Part shown: one piece after another, positions 10,658 through 64,000 of the stretch
Numbering within the stretch: position 1 is the first letter of the stretch
How the letters are laid out: each line of letters opens with the position of its first letter
NCBI RefSeq assembly: GCF_027533505.1
Contig: NZ_JAPZUB010000056.1
Span: 77-64,076, forward strand
Length of the DNA: 64,000 nt
Direction of reading: 5' to 3'
DNA from: Flavobacterium sp.
GTDB lineage: Bacteria; Bacteroidota; Bacteroidia; Flavobacteriales; Flavobacteriaceae
Program-made: the position numbers and the translations under genes
The notes under the pieces: model-generated
Told to the model about the DNA's origin: nothing
Database searches by the model: none
What the model saw: the letters and a program-made list of their open reading frames with translations, nothing else

Positions 10658-12073
10658 CTACATTTCAAAAAACTGATCTTGAAAACCTATCAAATACAAT
10701 CGTTCCTTGGCACGGGTTACGGCGGTGTACAACCATCGTACATCCTCCATTTGAAGTCCGTCGGGAAGATAAGGTTGTTCTACAAAAACAGTATTCCATT
10801 GCCCGCCTTGTGATTTATGGCCTGTAATCGCATAGGCAAATTTTACTTGTAGCCCATTGAAATATTCATTTTGCCGTAAGTGTTCTAAGCGTTTGTATTT
10901 GGATGGTTCGTCGGCGTAATCTAGTAAAACTTCTTCATACAAGCGTTGCGATTGCTCTTGGGTCAATGAAGGAGCTTCGCTAGTTAACGTATCTAATATG
11001 AGTATCGTTTCAAAAGGGATTTGGTCAGGATAATCAACCATTCTAATTTTTACGCGCGCAAATTGAAAACCATACAGTGCTTTGAAACCATAAATTTCAA
11101 GCACTTCAATAGTATCACCGTTGGCAATAAAACCGGCTTCATCGGTCTCTTTCAACCAAAAATAATTATTTTTCACAACCATCAAATAATCCCCCACCGA
11201 GAGTTCACTCTCCTTAAACAAGATACGGGCGCGAATTTGCTGATTGTATTGATTGGCGCGTTTATTGGAACGAACGATAAAAGCAGTATCCTCAATGGAG
11301 TATTGACTGTAGGCATTATTGATGGCGTCTTGAATATCATACCCATCAACCAAGCGAATAATATCTTTGAATCCGCGCAATTGAAATTGAAATCCTTCAA
11401 AAAAAGCGTCGTGTAATACTTCGCGTAACTGGGTTGCATTCCATAATATCCCCGACTTTTCCTCTTGACGCATAACCTCGTCCAGTGTAATGGTATCGAC
11501 TTTTTTTTGATAATGAAGCGACAAGGATTCAATATTCAATGCAGGCGAATCAGTGCGATTAACGGGGGGCAACTGAGCCGTGTCGCCCAAAAGAATGAGT
11601 TTGCAATTTTGATTGTTGTAGACATAAAAAATCAAATCATCCAATAATGAACCCTGTTGATACATACCTGAACCGCCATCATAATCGGAAATCATCGAAG
11701 CTTCATCGACAATAAAAAGCGTGTTTTTATGCTTATTTTGTTGCATGGTAAAAGTGACATTACCCGCCTTTTTCTTCGGAAAATAGATTTTTTTATGGAT
11801 GGTAAATGCGGGCTTATTTGCATAATTGGATATTACTTTGGCGGCACGACCTGTTGGTGCCAACAAAACCGACTTGTATTGAATATCTGGTAAACTTTGA
11901 ACCAAAGCCGCAATCACCGTTGTTTTCCCCGTACCCGCATAGCCTTTTAATACAAAAATCGAATCGTCGTTGGGTTCAAACACAAACTTTGTTATTTTTT
12001 GAAAAAAAACATCCTGTTTCAACGTGGGTTGAAAGGGAAAAGCCTGTTGTAATCGTTGGTAAAATTTTTGCAT
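10658..12073 (-). CDS. RecD2/UvrD-like superfamily-1 ATP-dependent helicase
   Basis: Walker A GYAGTGKTT, LAPTGRAAK, VDEASM, LGDTAQLPPV, HKSQG and WLYTAVTRAK. The ORF opens at 12103; ATG at 12073 is likely. Confidence 0.88.
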   Translation of the reverse strand: MQKFYQRLQQAFPFQPTLKQDVFFQKITKFVFEPNDDSIFVLKGYAGTGKTTVIAALVQSLPDIQYKSVLLAPTGRAAKVISNYANKPAFTIHKKIYFPKKKAGNVTFTMQQNKHKNTLFIVDEASMISDYDGGSGMYQQGSLLDDLIFYVYNNQNCKLILLGDTAQLPPVNRTDSPALNIESLSLHYQKKVDTITLDEVMRQEEKSGILWNATQLREVLHDAFFEGFQFQLRGFKDIIRLVDGYDIQDAINNAYSQYSIEDTAFIVRSNKRANQYNQQIRARILFKESELSVGDYLMVVKNNYFWLKETDEAGFIANGDTIEVLEIYGFKALYGFQFARVKIRMVDYPDQIPFETILILDTLTSEAPSLTQEQSQRLYEEVLLDYADEPSKYKRLEHLRQNEYFNGLQVKFAYAITGHKSQGGQWNTVFVEQPYLPDGLQMEDVRWLYTAVTRAKERLYLIGFQDQFFEM

Positions 12074-53720: not shown

Positions 53721-54436
53721 TATTTTTTCAACAAATAACGTACAACGGTTTCTGCGGCATGGAGTCCAAACAAACAAGGCATCCAAGAATTCGTTCCGTA
53801 AAACGATTTTTTAAAATTGCTTCCGTCGGTATGTTTTACACTATCATAATCCGGACGTTCGCTGGAGTAAACCACTTTGATACCCCCTGAAATTCCTTCC
53901 TTTTTAAGGCGTTTCCGCACGTGTTTGGCCAAGGGACAGTAATCGGTTTTGCTGATATCGGTGACTTTTACCTTAGCTGCCAAATATTTTCCACCTGCAC
54001 CCATATTACTGATTACTTTGACGCCTTTGCGTTTGGCGGCCAATAATAAATTCAATTTGGGAGTTACACTATCGATACAATCTAAGACATAATCAAACTC
54101 AGGCGAAACCAATTCAAAGGCCCGTTCGGGTGATAAAAACTCTTTCAAAGGAGTCAATTCCAATTCGGGGTTGATGTCCCACAAACGCGCGGCCATAAGT
54201 TCAACTTTAGGTAAACCTACTGTAGAATGCAACGCGGGTAATTGCCTGTTAATGTTGGTGATATCTACGACATCGCCATCCACAATAGTCATTTTTCCGA
54301 CGCCTGCACGCGCTAAAAATTCGGCGGCAAACGAACCTACGCCTCCCAAACCTACTACCAATACATTTGCCTGACGTAATTTTTCTAAACCTTCCGTCTT
54401 AAATAATAGTTCTGCACGTTCTTGCCAAACAGCCAT
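53720..54436 (-). CDS. tcdA: tRNA threonylcarbamoyladenosine dehydratase (ThiF family)
   Basis: Motifs GLGGVGS, DGDVVDITNINRQ, DCID and SNMGAGG. Confidence 0.9.
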   Translation of the reverse strand: MAVWQERAELLFKTEGLEKLRQANVLVVGLGGVGSFAAEFLARAGVGKMTIVDGDVVDITNINRQLPALHSTVGLPKVELMAARLWDINPELELTPLKEFLSPERAFELVSPEFDYVLDCIDSVTPKLNLLLAAKRKGVKVISNMGAGGKYLAAKVKVTDISKTDYCPLAKHVRKRLKKEGISGGIKVVYSSERPDYDSVKHTDGSNFKKSFYGTNSWMPCLFGLHAAETVVRYLLKK

Positions 54437-54446
54437 GATTTTAGAA

Positions 54447-54502
54447 TTATGAGTTATGAATTATGAGTTATGAGTTATGAGTTATGAGTTATGAGTTATG
54501 AA
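54447..54502. repeat. Heptamer tandem array (TTATGAR)x8
   Basis: Eight contiguous 7-mers: six TTATGAG and two TTATGAA. Confidence 0.95.
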
Positions 54503-54509
54503 TGGACTG

Positions 54510-54517
54510 CAAAAATA
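54510..54517 (-). promoter_or_regulatory. -7 promoter box (TATTTTTG) for tcdA, between two heptamer arrays
   Basis: CAAAAATA on the plus strand matches TAnnTTTG. Confidence 0.55.
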
Positions 54518-54530
54518 AGGATTTGGTGGG

Positions 54531-54607
54531 AGAAGAAAGAAGAAAGAAGAAAGAAGAAAGAAGAAAGAAGAAAGAAGAAAGAGAAAAGAGAAAAGAGAAA
54601 AGAGAAA
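54531..54607. repeat. Heptamer tandem array (AGAAGAA)x7 followed by (AGAGAAA)x4
   Basis: Eleven contiguous purine-only 7-mers between the tatD stop and the tcdA promoter. Confidence 0.95.
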
Positions 54608-54635
54608 AGACTCTTGCAGCGCAGCGGTCTTGCTT

Positions 54636-55464: not shown

Positions 55465-55568
55465 TTTGAACGTTTTCTTCGAACGTTGTTCGGACGTTCT
55501 TCGGGACTTGTTCGGCAAAATGCCGTTTTTCGGGGGTTTTTCCGAACAAGTCCCGAACAAGTCCCGAA
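55465..55568. repeat. 11-mer repeats forming an inverted repeat
   Basis: TTCGAACGTTG/TTCGGACGTTC/TTCGGGACTTG on the left. TTCGGGACTTGTTCGG (55500-55515) is the exact reverse complement of 55542-55557 and of 55553-55568. Confidence 0.9.
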
Positions 55569-55703: not shown

Positions 55704-55759
55704 TTGATATTGGCATACTGCTTCTATTTAACTCTTTACTTTTTGTCTTGACAGAGGTG

Positions 55760-56110
55760 AGTCGTTGGACGTATGAGTGACTAGTGATTAGTGACTAGTC
55801 GTTAGACGTTAGACGTTAGACGTTAGTTAAGGAGGACATGTTAGCACGCCCATTTCTAATTTATAATTCAACATTTAAAATACCTCCAAAAAGGGGTCTT
55901 TGTTCTTTCTTCTTTGTTCTTTCTTCTCAACTTAAAAGTCGTTAGAATTTAGAGTAATTAGTGATTAGTGACTAGTGATTAGTCGTTAGACGTTAGACAT
56001 TAGACGTTAGTCAAGAAGGACGTGTTAGAAAACCCATTTATAATTTAAAATTCAACATTTAAAATACTTCCAAAGAGGGTCTTTGTTCTTGCTTCTTTGC
56101 TCTTTTTTCT
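55760..56110. repeat. Two tandem roughly 170-bp direct repeats, each a mosaic of four heptamer arrays
   Basis: Copies at 55760-55927 and 55937-56110. Each has the order (TAGTGAY)n, (GTTAGAC)n, spacer, (ATTTAAA-like)x4, spacer, (CTTTSTT)x4. Confidence 0.92.
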
Positions 56111-56148
56111 AAAACAAACGATTCAGCCTTTGAATGACTCACAATATC

Positions 56149-56176: not shown

Positions 56177-56229
56177 AATAAACGGTTTAGTGGTTCAGCT
56201 TCTCGATGATTTTTTACTTCATTTTTTTG

Positions 56230-56237
56230 TATATTTG
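56230..56237 (+). promoter_or_regulatory. -7 promoter box (TATATTTG) for the integrase
   Basis: Ends 19 nt before ATG 56257. Confidence 0.6.
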
Positions 56238-56256
56238 TCATTCAACTACACGCCAT

Positions 56257-58005
56257 ATGACTTTAATTATTCGAAAAATTGAACACAAAGGAGCGGTACG
56301 CATTGGCATTTTTTTTGAAAGGAATAATGCGATACAGCAACAATTAAAAGGGATTGGAGCTACCTATAGCAAGACGTTTCAATGTTGGTATATTGATTAC
56401 AACAAAGCAGCGTATCAACAGCTAAAAATTTTATTTCCCGATTTACAAATACAGCAACCGGTGGCCGGCGAAACGAGTAGCCGTGACCTTCCACCCATAG
56501 CCCAAAGCGAACTTCAGTTAGGTTTACCTCCTTTGGTAAACAACCCTGAACCTATAACGAACAAGGCTTCGTTAGCCCATAAGTTGCGATTAGAATTATT
56601 ACCACCCTTGGGGAAATATTGGGTTTTTAAAATTCGGTATGTGCAATCGGTTGTGAATCAACTTAAGTTGGTAAAAGGCGTATATTGGCATTCGACGTAC
56701 AAAGTATATATGGCCAATCGGCATCCGAAAGTGAAAGAAGCGGTGGAACGTATTTTGGAAGTTTCCAATTTTTTTCCTGAAAACTATTTGGAAAAAGAGG
56801 TTGTTTTTGAAGGCAAGTCGATTGTTTTGCGTCCACACCTTGAGAATGTGAAATGGATGCAGGTGTATGTTCCTGCACAATTGGTGTTATTGGAAAAAAT
56901 AAAACGCATTTCGATGGTTCGGTACAGTAAACCGAATGCTTGTTTTTTATTGCCTGCAACCCCAGCTGTTGTTAATGCATTAGTGGTACATTTTGAACCG
57001 CATCGTGTTGTGATTCAATCGGAATTGCCTCAGGGATATGTAAACCGACGAAATGTTGTTAATAAAAAGCAACTTGATTTGGCGCGAACAAAATCACATT
57101 TGTTTTCCAAACTTCCTGAGCCGGCACATTATTTTGTTTCCAATTACATGGATACGTTAATGGCGGTGAATTATAGTGTTTCAACCATTCGTACTTATAC
57201 ACAACAATTTTTACAATTTTTACGCGATTTTGAGTACAGAGACCCCAAGGATATCACGTATAAAGAAACGGTTCGTTATTTAGCCTCCTTGATGGAACGC
57301 GGATTGAGTGCAACCTCTGGTCATGCGATGGTGAATGCATTGCTGTTTTATTATAATCAGGTGGAACAAATACCGGGTTATGAATTAAAACTACCTCGGC
57401 CTAAAAAGGAAAAAAAGTTGCCTACTGTTTTGACAAAGGAAGAATGTTTATTGCTTTTTGGGGTGGTTGAAAATCCGAAGCATAAGTTATTGTTATTAAT
57501 TGGTTATGGAGCGGGTTTACGCGTGAGTGAAATTGTGAATTTAGAGTGGCGTGATATTCTGTTTGCGGAACACAAGATTCACATCAGGAATGCGAAAGGA
57601 AAGAAAGATAGAATGGTGATGTTGCCTATGCGTATAGTTCGTTCATTGGAATACTATAAAGAGACGTATCAAACCAAAAAGTACGTATTTGAGGGGCAAT
57701 TTGCAGGTGAGCCCTATTCTGTGCGAAGTGTTCAGGAGGTTATGCGAATGGCATTAAAGAAGACTGGTTTGGAGAAAAAGGCCACGGTACATTCGTTACG
57801 ACATAGTTTTGCTACACATTTGCTGGAGCATGGAACGGATATTCGATATATTCAGCAGATATTGGGTCATTCGAGTATCAAGACCACAACGATTTACACG
57901 CATATTAGTGCAAGTGCTATGAATAAAATCATCAGTCCATTGGATCAGATTACCGAACAAGAATATGAGAAAAAAAGTGAATACGAATTGAAACCTAAGA
58001 AATAG
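56257..58005 (+). CDS. Tyrosine recombinase (integron-integrase-like / Xer-like) with a long N-terminal extension
   Basis: SAM-like segment NYSVSTIRTY and catalytic set GLRVSE, AKGKKDR, HSLRHS, LGH and TTTIYTH. The ORF opens at 56206; 582 aa from ATG 56257. Confidence 0.92.
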   Translation: MTLIIRKIEHKGAVRIGIFFERNNAIQQQLKGIGATYSKTFQCWYIDYNKAAYQQLKILFPDLQIQQPVAGETSSRDLPPIAQSELQLGLPPLVNNPEPITNKASLAHKLRLELLPPLGKYWVFKIRYVQSVVNQLKLVKGVYWHSTYKVYMANRHPKVKEAVERILEVSNFFPENYLEKEVVFEGKSIVLRPHLENVKWMQVYVPAQLVLLEKIKRISMVRYSKPNACFLLPATPAVVNALVVHFEPHRVVIQSELPQGYVNRRNVVNKKQLDLARTKSHLFSKLPEPAHYFVSNYMDTLMAVNYSVSTIRTYTQQFLQFLRDFEYRDPKDITYKETVRYLASLMERGLSATSGHAMVNALLFYYNQVEQIPGYELKLPRPKKEKKLPTVLTKEECLLLFGVVENPKHKLLLLIGYGAGLRVSEIVNLEWRDILFAEHKIHIRNAKGKKDRMVMLPMRIVRSLEYYKETYQTKKYVFEGQFAGEPYSVRSVQEVMRMALKKTGLEKKATVHSLRHSFATHLLEHGTDIRYIQQILGHSSIKTTTIYTHISASAMNKIISPLDQITEQEYEKKSEYELKPKK

Positions 58006-58018
58006 TTACATAAATTTG
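57988..58018 (+). promoter_or_regulatory. Consensus promoter TTG-N20-TAAATTTG overlapping the integrase 3' end (Pc-like)
   Basis: TTG at 57988-57990 and TAAATTTG at 58011-58018 match Bacteroidota -33/-7 spacing. Confidence 0.6.
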
Positions 58019-58042
58019 AATATATTTACTAGTTACAAGCAA
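58003..58042 (+). other. Candidate attI-like recombination site
   Basis: TAGTTACA is repeated at 58003 and 58030; G|TTACAAGCAA begins at 58032. The site function is inference. Confidence 0.4.
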
Positions 58043-58200
58043 CCCTAAAAGACCGACAGTGCGACCATCAAACGACAGAAAAAAAAGCCACCGCACATTT
58101 TAGCACATTTGGTCTTGCCCGACACACAAGCCAACCCTTCGCAAAACCAAAAGAGCTAAAATTTTCCTACCGCACGGACTGACATTCCGAAAATAAGTAT

Positions 58201-58225
58201 TAAATTTGACCAGTTTTGTCAAAAC
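58201..58225 (+). promoter_or_regulatory. -7 box overlapped by an inverted-repeat operator upstream of the Xre gene
   Basis: TAAATTTG at 58201-58208, TTTGAC-N7-GTCAAA at 58205-58223, and GTTTTG-T-CAAAAC at 58213-58225. Confidence 0.55.
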
Positions 58226-58237
58226 ACATATTGTCTT

Positions 58238-58531
58238 ATGAGTAACTTTGGTGACCTAATACGAATAGCAAGAGAAGAGAAAGGTTTGTTCCTGCGACAA
58301 GTTGCAGCTGAACTGGACATTGACCAAGCTATCATTAGCAAATTTGAACGCAACGAACGCAAGCCGACAAAGGAACAGGTTCTGAAATTTGCTAAGTTCT
58401 ATAAGCTCGACAAGGAAACTTTATTAGTTGAGTGGTTAAGCGACAAAGTAGCTTACGACCTGCAAGACGAGAATTTGGCTGACAAAGTTTTGAAAGCTGC
58501 TGAACAGAAAATTAAATACAAGAAAAAGTAA
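58238..58531 (+). CDS. Xre-family HTH regulator (controller-like)
   Basis: REEKGLFLRQVAAELDIDQAIISKFERNERKP HTH_3 pattern; TAATG-coupled to res. Confidence 0.9.
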   Translation: MSNFGDLIRIAREEKGLFLRQVAAELDIDQAIISKFERNERKPTKEQVLKFAKFYKLDKETLLVEWLSDKVAYDLQDENLADKVLKAAEQKIKYKKK

Positions 58532-61422
58532 TGCTTCATTATATCATACAAGAAAAGAAAAACAAATGGTTGCAGTCTGACGACTGCACCATTAGTGATT
58601 TGATAAAGTATATCCGTGACAAAGGACAGTTACGTGATACGCAAATTGAAGCAATTGAGACTTATTTGTTTTTGAAAATACAAGGACAGAATAAACCACT
58701 TTGGCAATTATTTTCAGAAGGCTTTTTCACTAACGGCACAGACTTATCAAAACTTAATATTAATCAAACGGCAAGAGATTTTTTAACCGCCAACAAAGAC
58801 GCTTTTGCATTGTATGACTTTGCAAGAACAAAAAACGGAAACGGTTCTTTACTCCCCGAACTCGAAAAACTAATTGTTGACAAACCAACTGAATTAGATT
58901 ACGACACTATTATAAAAAGCATTTTCTACAATGTAAGCTATGCCGACTACTTAATGAGTTTGCCGATGGGTGCAGGTAAAACATTTCTAATGGCTGCTTT
59001 CATTTATTTGGACTTGTATTTTGCCGACAACGAACCAGAGAATAAAGCATTTGCACATAATTTTTTGGTGCTTATTCCTTCGGGCTTAAAATCTTCTATC
59101 GTTCCGAGTTTAAAGACAATTGAAAATTACGACCCTTCTTGGGTGTTGCCCGAACCATCGGCAAGCAAACTAAAAAAACTATTGAAGTTTGATGTTTTGG
59201 ACGAGCAGAAATCAGCGAAGAAAAGTAACAAGGCAAGAAACCCCAATGCTCAAAAAGTAAATGCTTGCTTACCTAATCCATTCGGACAAGTGTTTGTTGT
59301 AAATGCAGAGAAAGTGATTTTGGAAAGTTTCAAATTCAATGCTCAAACAGAATTGGAACTGGAGGAAGAAGAAAAAGATACAAGCAACGATTTAAAAAGA
59401 TTGTTCGGACAAATTCCGAACTTGACAATCCTTATAGATGAAGTTCACCACGCTGCAACCGATGATATTAAATTACGGCAAGCCGTAAATTATTGGCACA
59501 GCAAAGGGAACATCACAACCGTTTTAGGTTTCTCGGGAACGCCATATTTGCAGGGTGCTGAAACTATCAAAGCAGGTGATTACGCTTTTAAGTTTTCTCA
59601 AATAACCAACACGGTATATTATTATCCATTGGTTACAGCAATTAAGAAATTTCTGAAAACACCAACAGTAAAAATCGGACAAAACCTTGACCGTTTTCAA
59701 ATCATTAAAAAAGGAATTGAGGACTTTGATACACTATACAAGAAAACTGTTTATGAAAATGGTGCTATTGCTAAAATAGCTATCTATTGCAGTAACATTG
59801 AGGTTTTAGAAGAAGAAGTTTATCCGTTCCTGACAAGTGAATTGAAAATAAATCCTGCCGAGATTTTAAAATTTCATGGAGGAAATAAAAAATACACTTT
59901 GCCAAAAGAGAATGAATTAGAATTCCGTTCATTGGATTTGGCTATTTCAAAAAAGCGTTACATTCTTTTAGTTCAAGTGGGAAAAGAAGGTTGGGACTGT
60001 CCAAGTTTAACAGGTGTAATCCTTTCGCAAAAAGGCGACAGCCCACAAAATATGGTGCTGCAAACATCTTGCAGATGTTTACGCCAAGTGGACAAAGGAA
60101 AAGAAGAAACTGCTTTGATTTGGTTGAATAAAGATAATGCCGATACATTGAACAAACAGTTAAAGCAAGAACAAAACAGCAGCATTGACGAACTGAACAG
60201 CACCAAACGAATTGGGAAAGCCGAAATGGTTGAACGCCACAGCCGTATGGAATACTTGCAGTTGCCGAAAGTGGAATTTTATCAAATGAAAGTTACTTAT
60301 CAAAGCATTGATGAGGAAGAAACAGCAAACACAAAAGCCAAGTTAAAAGCTATCATTAAAAAGATGGAAGATTACAAGGCTTCTGCCTTAATCAGCACCA
60401 GTGAAATTTCAAACATTGATACTGGAACTATTGACATTATTAACGAAACAGGAATTGCATTTGCCAATTACAACCAATGGCTTTTTGAAATGAGCCGCCA
60501 AAGTTTTGGGTTGATTTCGGAAACACAATTGCATCAATACGATACAGAATTAAACGAAATATTTGAAACCGTTTCTTTTGAAAAAGACGGAAACCGCTTT
60601 TTCAATGAACTGTATGATTTGCATTTGATACAATCAAAAATTCGTGTTGCGTTTAGCATCAAAAGAGATTTACAAACCGACACAGAAGTAATTCCAAAAC
60701 AAGCGGAATTATTGATTGCCGAACGCTTGACCAATGTAGAGAAAAATCCAAAACTCTATCCGAACGAAGCTGATACAAACAAAATTCTTGAATTAGATAA
60801 AAGCAATGCCGATGTTGAATTTGACTGGGCAGAAGTTGAAAAGGCTTATCTGGTAATGAAGGAGACAATGATAAGTCAAGGAATGGAAAAGTGGGTTCCT
60901 GAATATGAAACTTTCAAATCCGATAAAGATTATTCTCTACCAACAAAATCTAAAAATAATTCCTTTCATTATTTACCCTACAATTTTGGAGCTAGCGGAA
61001 GCAGTGGTTTTGAAATACAAGCACTTCAAGAAACCTTAAGATTAGCTGATTTCAAAACTAAAGAGTTGGAAATATACTACAATGGCGAACGTGGCTTAAC
61101 CGAATTTGTCATTAACTGCTTTGCCAAAGAAGGAAAGTATTGGAAAAACATTGGGAAATACACTACTGACTTTTTAATTGTGAAACGAACCGCTAAAGAT
61201 AAAATTCATAAAGCCCTACTTATTGAAACCAAAGGTGCTTTGTATGCAGAAGACAAGGTTTTTCAGAAAAAGAAAAACTATGTAGAAACAGAGTTTTTAA
61301 AACTCAACCAAGATAAATTCGGCTATCAACGTTTCGACTTCCTGTATTTGGAAGACAGCAAAAACATTGCAGCCAACATCACAGAATTGAACAATAAGTT
61401 AAACCAGTTCTTCAATGATTAA
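58531..61422 (+). CDS. Type III restriction (Res)-like SF2 helicase-nuclease
   Basis: Motifs SLPMGAGKT, DEVHH, FSGTP, VGKEGWDCP and QTSCRCLR; C-terminal PD-(D/E)xK-like TTDFLIV...LIETKG. Confidence 0.82.
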   Translation: MLHYIIQEKKNKWLQSDDCTISDLIKYIRDKGQLRDTQIEAIETYLFLKIQGQNKPLWQLFSEGFFTNGTDLSKLNINQTARDFLTANKDAFALYDFARTKNGNGSLLPELEKLIVDKPTELDYDTIIKSIFYNVSYADYLMSLPMGAGKTFLMAAFIYLDLYFADNEPENKAFAHNFLVLIPSGLKSSIVPSLKTIENYDPSWVLPEPSASKLKKLLKFDVLDEQKSAKKSNKARNPNAQKVNACLPNPFGQVFVVNAEKVILESFKFNAQTELELEEEEKDTSNDLKRLFGQIPNLTILIDEVHHAATDDIKLRQAVNYWHSKGNITTVLGFSGTPYLQGAETIKAGDYAFKFSQITNTVYYYPLVTAIKKFLKTPTVKIGQNLDRFQIIKKGIEDFDTLYKKTVYENGAIAKIAIYCSNIEVLEEEVYPFLTSELKINPAEILKFHGGNKKYTLPKENELEFRSLDLAISKKRYILLVQVGKEGWDCPSLTGVILSQKGDSPQNMVLQTSCRCLRQVDKGKEETALIWLNKDNADTLNKQLKQEQNSSIDELNSTKRIGKAEMVERHSRMEYLQLPKVEFYQMKVTYQSIDEEETANTKAKLKAIIKKMEDYKASALISTSEISNIDTGTIDIINETGIAFANYNQWLFEMSRQSFGLISETQLHQYDTELNEIFETVSFEKDGNRFFNELYDLHLIQSKIRVAFSIKRDLQTDTEVIPKQAELLIAERLTNVEKNPKLYPNEADTNKILELDKSNADVEFDWAEVEKAYLVMKETMISQGMEKWVPEYETFKSDKDYSLPTKSKNNSFHYLPYNFGASGSSGFEIQALQETLRLADFKTKELEIYYNGERGLTEFVINCFAKEGKYWKNIGKYTTDFLIVKRTAKDKIHKALLIETKGALYAEDKVFQKKKNYVETEFLKLNQDKFGYQRFDFLYLEDSKNIAANITELNNKLNQFFND

Positions 61423-61447
61423 TGGTTAATTGTAAATTGTTAATGAA
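61419..61447. repeat. Left heptamer array (TTAATTG-like x4) of the four-helix element
   Basis: TTAATGG TTAATTG TAAATTG TTAATGA fills the gap from the res stop to ATG 61448. Confidence 0.8.
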
Positions 61448-61807
61448 ATGACAGAGAATATTATAAAAAATAAAAGTTTTGCATTTGCAATTAGAGTTGT
61501 AAAACTATATCAGTTTTTATGTGAAACAAAAAAGGAGTTTGTTCTTTCAAAGCAATTGTTGAGAAGCGGAACTGCTGTTGGTGCATTAGTTCGAGAAGCT
61601 GAACACGCTGAAAGCAAAGCAGATTTTAAACACAAAATGTCAATTGCTCAAAAAGAAATAAATGAAAGTATCTATTGGCTCGAATTGCTAAAAGAAACGG
61701 ACTATTTAACCAATGAACAATTTCAAAGCATCAATGCAGATGCAGTAGAAATAATCAAACTACTTACATCAATAATCAAATCGACCAAAGCAAACATTAA
61801 CAACTAA
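61448..61807 (+). CDS. Four helix bundle protein (23S rRNA-IVS-protein / bAvd-like family)
   Basis: 119 aa with KSFAFAIRVVKLY, LSKQLLRSGTAVGALVREA, AESKADFKHK.SIA.KE..ES.YWLELL. Confidence 0.92.
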   Translation: MTENIIKNKSFAFAIRVVKLYQFLCETKKEFVLSKQLLRSGTAVGALVREAEHAESKADFKHKMSIAQKEINESIYWLELLKETDYLTNEQFQSINADAVEIIKLLTSIIKSTKANINN

Positions 61808-61828
61808 CAATTGATAATTAACAATTAG
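61794..61828. repeat. Right heptamer array (CAATTAA-like x5), inverted relative to the left array
   Basis: ACATTAA CAACTAA CAATTGA TAATTAA CAATTAG, ending 5 nt before the mod ATG. Confidence 0.8.
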
Positions 61829-61833
61829 AAAAA

Positions 61834-63702
61834 ATGCCAATAAAATACATTCCATATTACCCTAACACGGTTGAAGGACAAGCAGTTTTGAATAATATAA
61901 CACGCAATCAAAGAGTATTGCGATACCGTGAAAATGATAAGGTTTTTGACCGCATAAAAAGAGGTATGCCCTTTTATGAAGTAGAACCTATTGAAACAGT
62001 AGGAGCACCTTCTAAAAATTTGGTTATACGTGGCGAATGTATATCGGCTTGTGCATATTTGAAGGAACAAGGAATTAAGGTTGATTTGGTTTGCATTGAC
62101 CCACCATTTGCAAGTGGTATTGATTATTCAAAAAAAGTTTTTATCCGTAGAAATCCAAATATTGCCAAAAAAATTGAAGAGGCTGAACAACAAATGGATA
62201 TTGAGGAATTAAGAGCATTTGAAGAAAAAATGTATGGAGACATTTGGTCAAAAGAAGATTATCTCAATTGGATGTATGAAAATCTTTTAGCTATTAAATC
62301 AGTTATGGATGAAAAGGCCAGTATTTATGTTCACCTAGATTGGCATATTGGCCATTATGTAAAAATACTTATGGATGAAGTCTTTGGAGAGGACTTGTTT
62401 AGAAATGAGATTATATGGTATTATGCTGATTATATACAAGGTAATGCCACCACAGGTTTTGCTAAAAAGCACGATGTGATATATTTCTATACAAAATCGG
62501 ACAATTATACCTTTCAAAGGGTAACCGAAAAACTTGACAAGCCAGTTGAAAGAAATAAAGTAGTATGGGACAAAGAAACCCAGACACTAAAAGTTGCGAG
62601 AGATGAAAATGGTAAAATAATCTATGAAACATTTACAGAAAAATTCCTTGATAGTGTTTGGGCAATTGGTCAAACTTCAGTGACAAGAAAAACTAGTAGT
62701 GAAAATGTCGGTTATTCAACACAAAAGCCCAAAGCACTGTTAGAAAGGTTCATTAAGGCAAGTAGTAATGAAGGAATGATAATCGCTGATTTCTTTGGCG
62801 GTAGTGGAGTAACAGCAAAAGTAGCAAACGACTTAGGCAGAAAATTTATTCATTGTGATATTGGAATAAACAGTATTCAGACAGTTAGAGATAGATTAGT
62901 TGAAGCCAAAGCCAACTTTCAAATATTGGAAATAAAAGACGGTGTTAGCTTATTCCGCAACCCACAGCAAACAATGGATAAGTTGGCAACACTTATTCCA
63001 GGATTACAAAAAGGAGTAAAAGGAATTAGCAATTTTTGGTTTGGTGCAATCACAAAAAGTAAAGAAGGCATTGTGCCGGTTTACGTTCCCAATTTGCTTA
63101 ATACACAAGAAAAGGTTTTGGACATTCCCACCATAAACACCATAATCAATCAGGAACTATCAAACTTAGAAGTCAATGCCAAAAAAGTAATTGTGTATTA
63201 CATAGACATTGACGACCAAAAGGCATTGGAGAAATTTATAAAAGACAACAACGCCACAGAAATAGAGGTTGAATTAAAAGACCTTAAAAATCTATTGCAC
63301 GATGTAGTAATTGAGGACATTATAGATTTTAAAACTACTAAAACAAAAGACGGTTACGAAACAGAAATAAACAAATTCATTAGCGACCGTCTAATTCAGA
63401 AAATCGGTGAATTTAACCAAAAAGGAAATTTACAATCTGTTGCCAAAGGCAAGAAATTCAATCCCATCAACATCAGTGAAGAAGGATTAGAACTCATTGA
63501 GCTTATTGCCCTTGACTGCGAAAACACAGAAGGACAATGGCACAGCACCACAGAAATTAAAATTGACAAACTCGGTTATGTAATTACCAACGGAGTAAAA
63601 TCAAAAAACTTTTGGAACGGCAAAATTACCAGCGACAAAAATCCATTGAGAATAAAAGTGAGAAACATAAGCGGAGACGAAACAATAAAAACAGTAGAAT
63701 AA
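61834..63702 (+). CDS. Type III Mod-like N6A/N4C DNA methyltransferase
   Basis: Catalytic DPPF, YVHLDWHIGHY, YSTQKP..LLERFI and SAM-binding DFFGGSGVT. Confidence 0.9.
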   Translation: MPIKYIPYYPNTVEGQAVLNNITRNQRVLRYRENDKVFDRIKRGMPFYEVEPIETVGAPSKNLVIRGECISACAYLKEQGIKVDLVCIDPPFASGIDYSKKVFIRRNPNIAKKIEEAEQQMDIEELRAFEEKMYGDIWSKEDYLNWMYENLLAIKSVMDEKASIYVHLDWHIGHYVKILMDEVFGEDLFRNEIIWYYADYIQGNATTGFAKKHDVIYFYTKSDNYTFQRVTEKLDKPVERNKVVWDKETQTLKVARDENGKIIYETFTEKFLDSVWAIGQTSVTRKTSSENVGYSTQKPKALLERFIKASSNEGMIIADFFGGSGVTAKVANDLGRKFIHCDIGINSIQTVRDRLVEAKANFQILEIKDGVSLFRNPQQTMDKLATLIPGLQKGVKGISNFWFGAITKSKEGIVPVYVPNLLNTQEKVLDIPTINTIINQELSNLEVNAKKVIVYYIDIDDQKALEKFIKDNNATEIEVELKDLKNLLHDVVIEDIIDFKTTKTKDGYETEINKFISDRLIQKIGEFNQKGNLQSVAKGKKFNPINISEEGLELIELIALDCENTEGQWHSTTEIKIDKLGYVITNGVKSKNFWNGKITSDKNPLRIKVRNISGDETIKTVE

Positions 63703-63980
63703 TGCCAGTATATTTAGTAGTTACAGACGACACATTTTCATTAGATAAAATTAAGCACAAATTCCCTGCTGACTTTGTGGAAGTTTTTAACAATACATTT
63801 CTTTTAAGTTATTAGCTTTCAGACTGGCAACTTAATGACGAAATTGCTGAATTAATTTATGAAGAATATCCAAATTTTGAAATTGTAATTACAGAAGTTA
63901 ATAAAGCAGATTTGTTTCATTTTAAGGAAGCGGACAAGTATGTAAAATATCTTTTTGACAGAGAACAAACTAAAAACTAA
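63702..63980 (+). pseudogene. 92-codon ORF interrupted by an in-frame TAG at 63813-63815
   Basis: ATG 63702 is coupled to the mod stop. The same frame stays open after the TAG (LSDWQLNDEIAELIYEEYP...EQTKN) until TAA at 63978-63980. Confidence 0.6.
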
Positions 63981-64000
63981 AATGCCAACCCTTCGCAGTC

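Follow-up and report, generated by a model that had tools for sequence, protein, structure and literature searches.

What does a tyrosine recombinase with an Xer-like catalytic core gain from a long additional N-terminus, and on which sites does it act? The question is raised by a gene at positions 56257-58005 of a stretch of Flavobacterium sp. DNA (contig NZ_JAPZUB010000056.1), the whole 64,000 nucleotides of which are here called the window. The N-terminus of the encoded protein contains three units that resemble the HARP domain, the gene is followed directly by a conserved attI-like site, and in related loci such genes are followed by arrays of cassettes with structured attC-like sites. We consider it likely that the product of this gene is the site-specific recombinase of an integron-like cassette platform in the Flavobacterium chromosome, with the HARP-like units as the proposed readers of attC. 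The integron integrase IntI is defined by one inserted domain, on which the detection of integrons in genomes depends, and that domain is absent here.

Architecture of the recombinase

The open reading frame (ORF) is open from 56206 to 58005 on the forward strand, and the methionine at 56257 (MTLIIRK...) is the start common to all homologues. The parts of the gene are as follows (positions are those of the window; aa, amino acids; pLDDT, predicted local distance difference test).

56257..58005, + strand: recombinase gene, 582 aa plus stop; proposed integrase of an integron-like platform
56257..56442, + strand: HARP-like unit 1, aa 1-62; strands 3-10, 13-19, 36-38 and 43-47, helices 24-32 and 50-59, pLDDT 96-98 (AlphaFold2); aligned by hhalign to units 2 and 3
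56443..56577, + strand: disordered linker, aa 63-107, pLDDT 27-55; short conserved motifs SRDLPPIA (aa 75-82) and QLGLPPL
56578..56766, + strand: HARP-like unit 2, aa 108-170; strands 113-118, 121-125, 142-145 and 150-154, helices 130-138 and 157-167 (AlphaFold2); also aligned by hhalign
56812..57012, + strand: HARP-like unit 3, aa 186-252; strands 188-193, 200-204, 222-224 and 229-233, helices 209-216 and 236-249 (AlphaFold2); hhalign probability of 97.4% between units 1 and 3
57127..57369, + strand: SAM-like core-binding domain, aa 291-371; Pfam PF13495 and PF02899; aligns with the N-terminal domains of XerA and IntI4
57427..57909, + strand: catalytic domain, aa 391-551; R422, the lysines of KGKKDR (447-452), H512, R515, H538 and Y547; no IntI-specific insertion

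A Pfam scan matches the C-terminal half only, with SAM_4 at aa 297-371 and Phage_integrase at aa 391-551 (E = 2.8e-38), and the full catalytic set of the tyrosine recombinases (R, K, H-x-x-R, H/W, Y) is present by motif position. None of the curated NCBIfam models reaches its cut-off: the best is XerA_Arch with 205.1 bits (cut-off 220), followed by the integron integrase model TIGR02249 with 202.8 bits in two stretches (cut-off 265), XerC with 167.8 (335), XerD with 163 (330) and NF011946 with 138.1 bits (435). Among solved structures the C-terminal half is nearest to XerA (4a8e, 141.8 bits), then to VchIntIA (2a3v, 130.6 bits) and to a second XerA structure (5hxy, 127.1 bits). The alignment to VchIntIA falls into two blocks, between which query residues 181-207 (27 aa) stand opposite IntI residues 178-246 (69 aa), so that about 42 residues of the IntI-specific domain are missing. 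An earlier note on this sequence had described a protein that starts at 56257, lacks the IntI insertion and has an Xer-like distance of about 65 aa between GKKDR and HSLRH; all three statements agree with our results, the distance being 64 residues between GKKDR (aa 448-452) and HSLRH (aa 512-516). The additional domain around patch III is the defining trait of IntI (Messier and Roy 2001, as cited in PMC9668308), and since this domain is absent and the score stays below the curated cut-off, the enzyme should not be filed as an IntI.

The N-terminus is less easily recognised. Residues 1-290 have no match in direct sequence searches of Pfam, NCBIfam and the PDB, and self-BLAST of the N-terminus detects no repeat. 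The same note had reported three repeats in about 250 extra N-terminal residues from motifs at aa 30-46 (56344-56394), aa 136-152 (56662-56712) and aa 215-232 (56899-56952), and these repeats emerge clearly in profile comparisons and in structural models. With profiles built from nine close homologues, hhalign yields weak in-register matches between the units; with sub-alignments of 32 sequences the units align over their whole length of about 60 residues, with probabilities of 96-97% and P values of 2.8e-9, 4.6e-11 and 1.9e-9. The AlphaFold2 model of the N-terminus, based on an alignment of 33 sequences, has a mean pLDDT of 89 and shows a beta-beta-alpha-beta-beta-alpha fold three times, at residues 3-59, 113-167 and 188-249, and the full-length model agrees with it. 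In two homologues (P0009 and P0010) an in-register deletion leaves a single unit made of the first half of unit 2 and the second half of unit 3, as is expected of true repeats. The GKYWV strand of unit 2 is invariant, with G119, K120, Y121 and V123 unchanged in the homologues. While a word-indexed protein search found 10 relatives, an exhaustive HMMER search with the N-terminal alignment retrieved 914 representative proteins at E ≤ 0.001, many of them 570-610 aa long and with the same architecture.

The likeness of the units to HARP is a remote one. When a profile of 95 units was compared with 177,635 PDB sequences, the HARP domain of SMARCAL1 (4o66) was the top match, with E = 1.7e-4. In searches of single units against Pfam the most frequent match was HARP (PF07443; 20 of 95 units at E ≤ 10), and DUF5710 came second with 15; the best HARP unit, from a relative, scored 22.7 bits (E = 7.1e-5) over model positions 2-37 of 55, compared with a gathering threshold of 25 bits. 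Structure prediction followed by a fold search, which the note had proposed as a check, placed the N-terminal damage-recognition domain (DRD) of archaeal XPB (5tnu, 6p4w, 2fz4) at the best Foldseek probability against the PDB (0.96-0.99, root-mean-square deviation 2.5-3.0 Å over about 70 columns), and 4o66 at 0.54 with 19% identity. HARP, the XPB DRD, MutS domain I and the N-terminal domain of UvsW have been grouped into a single structural class of modules that recognise DNA structure. Judged by sequence, the units are HARP-like by remote homology and lie outside the Pfam family proper, and it is in this sense that the label given in the note holds.

The linker between units 1 and 2 is predicted by AlphaFold2 to be disordered, over residues 66-105, and its residues R76, P80 and I81 are nearly invariant among close homologues. 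The peptide QLGLPPL, which follows SRDLPPIA (aa 75-93, 56479-56535), resembles the QLxLxL peptide that binds the beta clamp; if it is a clamp-binding peptide, it would link the enzyme to replication forks.

The attI-like site and cassette arrays

The N-terminal alignment retrieved 62 genome loci, mostly from Flavobacterium, which were read over 20 kb. Their comparison defines a conserved site immediately downstream of the gene.

58006..58034, + strand: attI-like site TTACATAAATTTGAATATATTTACTAGTT, directly after the stop codon; proposed crossover in GTT at 58032-58034
58011..58018, + strand: promoter-like box TAAATTTG, kept inside the attI consensus and facing the cassettes

The consensus aAAAAAGTTgtATATATTTGatGATATTTACTAGTT, derived from the 3′ tails of 55 loci, carries about 2 bits per position up to the GTT and collapses immediately after it. 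The blastn similarity of the window to other genomes stops at 58034/58035, and one public contig from Logan (L064) starts exactly at 58006. In related species the upstream flank is syntenic and the gene is kept together with some tens of bp to either side, while similarity between genomes ends about 55-80 bp past the stop codon; two loci (L013 and L014), for example, are 88% identical upstream and 94% identical in the gene block and share nothing downstream. The upstream intergenic DNA of the gene is not conserved among close relatives, and many of the retrieved contigs end shortly after the gene. The genome of F. sasangense contains two blocks of gene and site that are 98.5% identical and have different flanks, one followed by six attC-like sites (L048) and the other by one (L049). 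The site varies with the lineage of the recombinase and reads, for example, TATATACAAGTT in the F. frigoris group. The box TAAATTTG matches TAnnTTTG, which we take to be the Bacteroidetes -7 promoter box, and by analogy it may act like the Pc promoter of integrons.

Two other interpretations of the site were discarded. An array of attI-like sites was considered and dropped because matches to the 12-nt attI arm, at 2 mismatches or fewer, occur at about the density expected by chance, 0.33 per kb downstream compared with 0.23 per kb upstream. The window contains no tRNA, which led us to reject a tRNA-type integration site. Neither the window nor the retrieved flanks gave a further integrase-like match.

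Downstream of the recombinase genes, 157 of 177 ORFs are co-oriented with the recombinase. They often encode 100-250 aa and are separated by spacers of 140-190 bp with a repeat of the layout NNNYAAC-A-GCGGTTTGC ... GCAAGCCGC-GAAAC-GTTRNNN. These sites escape a strict search for inverted repeats and an exact pattern with gaps on account of their bulges and loop length, and a looser regular expression followed by a covariance model succeeded. The loose pattern has 71 matches downstream of the genes and one upstream. Aligned together, 47 of the sites give a hairpin of 13 consensus pairs, and compensatory changes are seen in 10 of these. The share of cells that are paired is 95.9%, against 68.6% in shuffled controls; for covariation the score is 0.621, against 0.116 after shuffling (none of 500 shuffles reaches the observed value) and 0.03-0.09 when the partners are slid. 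When the covariance model derived from these 47 spacer repeats was run over 874 kb, 167 sites came out at E ≤ 0.01; with one exception they are on the + strand. Among the 150 best-scoring sites, 149 are located past the gene; the sites come from 37 loci, with up to 13 sites per 9 kb. Sites have a median length of 132 nt, and cassette bodies one of about 700 nt. Cultured species with an array include F. silvisoli, F. celericrescens and F. sasangense.

The sites are related to one another in the manner of integron cassettes. The four variable bases of R″ in attC(n+1) are perfectly complementary to the GTTnnnn of attC(n) in 102 of 112 comparisons, and the junction at attI is complementary to the first attC in 26 of 36; by chance, four-base complementarity is expected in 1 of 256 comparisons. 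Such complementarity would result if circular cassettes with one attC each were inserted by exchange at G|TT. Exactly one ORF of at least 60 aa is carried by 95 of 149 cassettes, and 164 of 187 cassette ORFs are co-oriented. The cargo is diverse, with 100 Pfam families in 124 ORFs, and includes recurrent defence and addiction genes (GmrSD, HaeIII- and EcoRI-type restriction-modification enzymes, type I restriction-modification subunits and methylases, an AriA-like ATPase, ParE) as well as proteins of the beta-lactamase fold.

The folded site is asymmetric. Between the R and L stems it has one unpaired base on the 5′ side and five (R-A-A-A-C) on the 3′ side, and the L stem contains an invariant T-G pair that corresponds to an A/C mismatch on the complementary strand. 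The bottom strand has the slightly better fold in 36 of 47 sites, no more than a hint as to the choice of strand.

Recombinases related to that of the window carry one or two HARP-like units. A metagenome scan with distant members of the family yielded recombinases of 385-396 aa with a single unit, which corresponds to unit 1; the one-unit proteins in L068, L074 and L079 begin like it. The attC model derived from Flavobacterium finds sites after four such genes, with 47 bits in L078, 39 bits in L068, 34 and 22 bits in L079 and a weak match in L074. In L068 the junction GTTAGCGGT is paired with the R″ sequence ACCGCTAAC, and in L079 GTTATGCGG is paired with CCGCATAAC. Because these one-unit relatives also stand beside cassettes, the link between HARP-like units, an Xer-like core that lacks the IntI insertion and attC-like sites is not confined to the three-unit proteins of Flavobacterium. 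The attC-like sites in L068, L074 and L079 are longer, at about 195 nt, and follow the same R″/R′ logic; in L068 the attI junction lies about 165 nt past the stop codon.

Some irregular arrangements were also observed. In a Flavobacterium metagenome-assembled genome (L062, 10699-11948) the integrase gene is split between aa 224 and 229 by an insert of about 1.25 kb that ends in an attC-like site (11814-11945); this insert looks like a cassette that entered the integrase gene at a secondary site. Upstream of the gene, single attC-like sites stand alone in L016 (8861-8992, − strand) and L019 (8080-8200, + strand), one of them inverted and strong (100 bits), and these may be what is left of rearranged arrays. 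Many cassettes start with A/C-rich leaders (...GACGACAC...).

The first cassette and its polymorphism

In the window itself, the DNA that follows the attI-like site is best described as one large cassette, which is cut off by the window end and contains four genes identified by Pfam matches.

58035..64000, + strand: first cassette, incomplete in the window; attC from about 64122, some 120 bp past the window end
58238-58531, in the first cassette: helix-turn-helix controller
58531-61422, in the first cassette: ResIII-type enzyme
61448-61807, in the first cassette: 23S_rRNA_IVP four-helix protein
61834-63702, in the first cassette: N6/N4 DNA methyltransferase

The public contig L064 carries the same restriction-modification unit and extends 157 bp beyond the window end. 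Its end reads GCTTGTAAC-ACGGGT..., where GCTTGTAAC is the reverse complement of the first junction GTTACAAGC and is followed by an L″-like start. The location of this complement places the cassette from 58035 to just past the window. G+C content in the region falls to 0.34-0.36, with a strong AT skew.

The content of the platform is naturally polymorphic in populations. In one metagenome run (X11) the same integrase is present at a depth of 38 with 9 differences in 2030 nt, the depth of the restriction-modification cassette is 0, and the sequence continues into different DNA from 58043. In a second run (X2) the integrase is covered about 20 times and the restriction-modification cassette 1-8 times, and a contig of depth 17 joins 58035 to other DNA.

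Several smaller features of the cassette were noted. The sequence TATTTAGTAGTTACA at 63711-63725, right after the methyltransferase stop codon, agrees at 14 of 15 bases with 58023-58037, the right-hand part of the attI-like site; this may be due to chance, or it may be a trace of the entry of the restriction-modification module into the cassette. As a candidate for the cassette end this copy was rejected, since the first junction has its complement beyond this point, in L064. The leader of the cassette (58036-58237) was considered as a general repeat and dismissed: it is shared only with loci of related restriction-modification cargo, and its fold is unremarkable (z = −2.2). An A/C-rich motif, GCCAACCCTTCGCA, occurs in the leader at 58128-58141 and in the tail at 63985-63998, as well as in L035, L063 and L026, which carry related restriction-modification cargo.

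Proposed mechanism, alternative explanations and neighbouring features

At the level of the system, the best-supported reading is that the platform behaves like an integron, while its integrase is non-canonical. As in integrons (IntI; VchIntIA 2a3v, TIGR02249), the tyrosine recombinase gene adjoins a primary site with its boundary at G|TT, and in 37 related loci there are arrays of cassettes that each end in a structured attC with R″/R′ complementarity. The R″(..YAAC)-L″...L′-R′(GTTR..) layout of attC is kept by compensatory changes; there is a single attC per cassette, whose R″ is complementary to the cassette's own 5′ end; and the ORFs are mostly single and co-oriented, with diverse cargo that is rich in defence and toxin genes and polymorphic in content. 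The enzyme differs from IntI in lacking the additional domain (27 compared with 69 residues), in scoring below the TIGR02249 cut-off and in having three N-terminal HARP-like domains, of which IntI has none. The spacer between the R and L boxes, asymmetric here with 1 nt compared with 5 nt, is another difference from integrons. So is the position of attI past the 3′ end of the integrase gene, with an array co-oriented with that gene, although attI sites downstream of intI, in a layout that resembles this one, have been reported in archaeal integrons (PMC9668308).

The unit itself, about 60 residues of beta-beta-alpha-beta-beta-alpha with the pattern (..Y....l...K.lp.r.Ys...K.W..), is shared with the HARP domain of SMARCAL1 (4o66) and the XPB DRD. 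Unlike in those proteins, it is fused to a tyrosine recombinase rather than to a superfamily 2 motor, it is present in three copies, its family likeness is below threshold, and it is known here from sequence and models. HARP and XPB DRD modules recognise DNA structure, not sequence, in their own proteins. A literature search found no paper on HARP-like domains in recombinases or on Flavobacterium integrons, within a partial coverage of journals that leaves room for an earlier description.

These observations lead us to propose the following scheme. The enzyme would be resident in the chromosome, with its attI-like site 0-50 bp past its own stop codon. Circular cassettes with one attC-like site each would enter by strand exchange at G|TT and build up downstream as a co-oriented array, which the outward-facing TAnnTTTG box in attI may help to express. 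That the enzyme catalyses the cassette reactions, and which strand it uses, we infer by analogy with IntI: it would bind the conserved double-stranded attI and a folded attC strand and exchange one pair of strands at G|TT, and replication would resolve the product. Canonical integrases use the IntI insertion to read the bases that stand extrahelical in the folded attC strand, and modules of the HARP, XPB-DRD and MutS-I types recognise junctions, distortions and mismatches. As such modules read DNA structure and the IntI element is absent, the most economical hypothesis is that the three HARP/XPB-DRD-like domains stand in its place. They might recognise the asymmetric internal loop that separates the R and L boxes (1 nt compared with 5 nt) and the invariant T-G pair, or the A/C mismatch of the other strand. 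The proposed reading of folded attC by the HARP-like units, by a route unlike that of IntI, draws strong circumstantial support from the attC arrays beside both three-unit and one-unit proteins.

Several observations weigh against this interpretation. All HARP scores lie under the 25-bit Pfam gathering threshold, the window protein's own three units have no Pfam HARP match, and every Foldseek E-value, obtained with a three-domain model as the query, is 0.06 or higher; weak E-values are unsurprising where a domain of 60 residues sits within a three-domain query. We also infer that DNA is bound by the N-terminal units rather than by the catalytic core. The covariance model, even unfiltered, gives no attC inside the window, and the attC of the first cassette is represented by about 36 nt at the end of L064. 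That cassette is atypically large, with about 6 kb and four genes, and the X11 variant departs 8 nt after the GTT instead of at it. In 10 of the 36 comparisons between attI and the first attC there is no complementarity, for which missed sites are the likely cause. Finally, the reading covered 20-kb loci, and these genomes could possibly hold a canonical IntI elsewhere.

The main rival explanation accepts the enzyme as the integrase of the platform and takes the N-terminal repeats for accessory domains, which would serve multimerisation or bind double-stranded arm-type attI sites, as in lambda-type integrases, with the Xer-like core handling the hairpin. Arm-binding N-terminal domains made of a beta-sheet and a helix are common in tyrosine recombinases, 2 of the 95 units have weak AP2 matches, about 30 conserved bp to the left of the GTT could hold extra binding sites, and the sub-threshold HARP likeness can be counted on this side as well. 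An Xer-type core alone, without the IntI insertion, can join a hairpin to a double-stranded site, as XerCD does when it integrates the folded single-stranded attP of phage CTX; there, however, the phage hijacks the host Xer at dif, and no cassette arrays, dedicated integrase or HARP-like domains are involved. Still, the commonest and best matches of the units are HARP, XPB-DRD and MutS-related structure-specific modules rather than arm-binding domains, the conserved attI is short and has no obvious triple repeat, and the upstream intergenic DNA is unconserved in close relatives. Moreover, the units co-occur with the loss of the IntI insertion in one-unit and three-unit proteins that flank attC arrays. 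We therefore regard accessory domains as an unlikely explanation, and the remaining two, which question the link between the recombinase and the cassettes, are disfavoured more strongly.

It seems very improbable that the recombinase is a bystander, with the arrays made by an enzyme encoded elsewhere (such as a canonical IntI) or the 3′ flank serving as a favoured target of unrelated mobile elements. Other recombinases could lie outside the 20-kb loci, but gene, attI-like site and array adjoin in 37 loci and again in one-unit relatives that are distant and come from other metagenomes, the site changes along with the lineage of the recombinase, as with TATATACAAGTT in the F. frigoris group, and each of the two gene and site blocks of F. 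sasangense owns an array. The window and fetched flanks offer no other integrase-like candidate, and canonical integrons are reported to be almost absent in Bacteroidetes (PMC9024848). We give even less credence to a single-recombinase Xer system for the resolution of chromosome dimers, in which the adjacent site would be dif-like, as in XerS/difSL, and the variable DNA would consist of Xer-exploiting elements. The catalytic and core-binding domains are indeed nearest to XerA (4a8e at 141.8 bits, 5hxy), the spacing from KGKKDR to HxxR is Xer-like, a site that adjoins its gene recalls xerS/difSL, and the cumulative GC skew turns near 54-56 kb. That turn is weak, however, and coincides with the low-G+C cassette; the Xer equivalog scores are far under their cut-offs; the protein has about 290 extra N-terminal residues; and the site borders arrays of hairpin-site cassettes with R″/R′ complementarity, which are not dif-flanked. 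The presence of two copies of gene and site in one genome (L048 and L049, 98.5% identical) led us to reject the dif/Xer hypothesis.

Of the explanations considered, an integron-like platform with HARP-like attC readers thus remains the one we prefer. Its generalisation is more speculative, and we find the case for it evenly balanced: Bacteroidota would hold a second, unrecognised class of integrons, with an Xer-like integrase that lacks the IntI insertion and reads attC hairpins through one to three HARP/XPB-DRD-like modules. As current tools require the IntI insertion, such elements would have been missed and integrons wrongly held to be nearly absent from the phylum. The IntegronFinder 2.0 survey found only In0 elements and one complete integron (Salinibacter) in Bacteroidetes (PMC9024848). 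An integron-like platform whose integrase carries HARP-like modules and no IntI domain would mean that proteins have solved the recombination of hairpin-site cassettes in more than one way, and it would offer a natural experiment on the recognition of DNA structure as opposed to sequence. It would also mean that Flavobacterium and other Bacteroidota contain a large hidden reservoir of mobile cassettes with many defence systems, and that the eukaryotic fork-recognition module HARP is linked to a bacterial recombination system.

Upstream of the recombinase, the intergenic DNA has features of its own. At 55736-56113 (and also at 54435-54610) there is a 184-bp tandem duplication with 80% identity, composed mostly of 7-bp repeats (TAGTGAC/TAGACGT and TCTTTGT/TCTTTCT), and similar heptamer arrays occur between the ThiF and TatD genes. 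The metagenome contig depth of the duplication region is 3-4 times that of the integrase, so that the region looks like a multi-copy element. Between TatD and the integrase, at 55489-55568, lies an imperfect inverted repeat of 32 nt, its arms 84% complementary and 16 nt apart.

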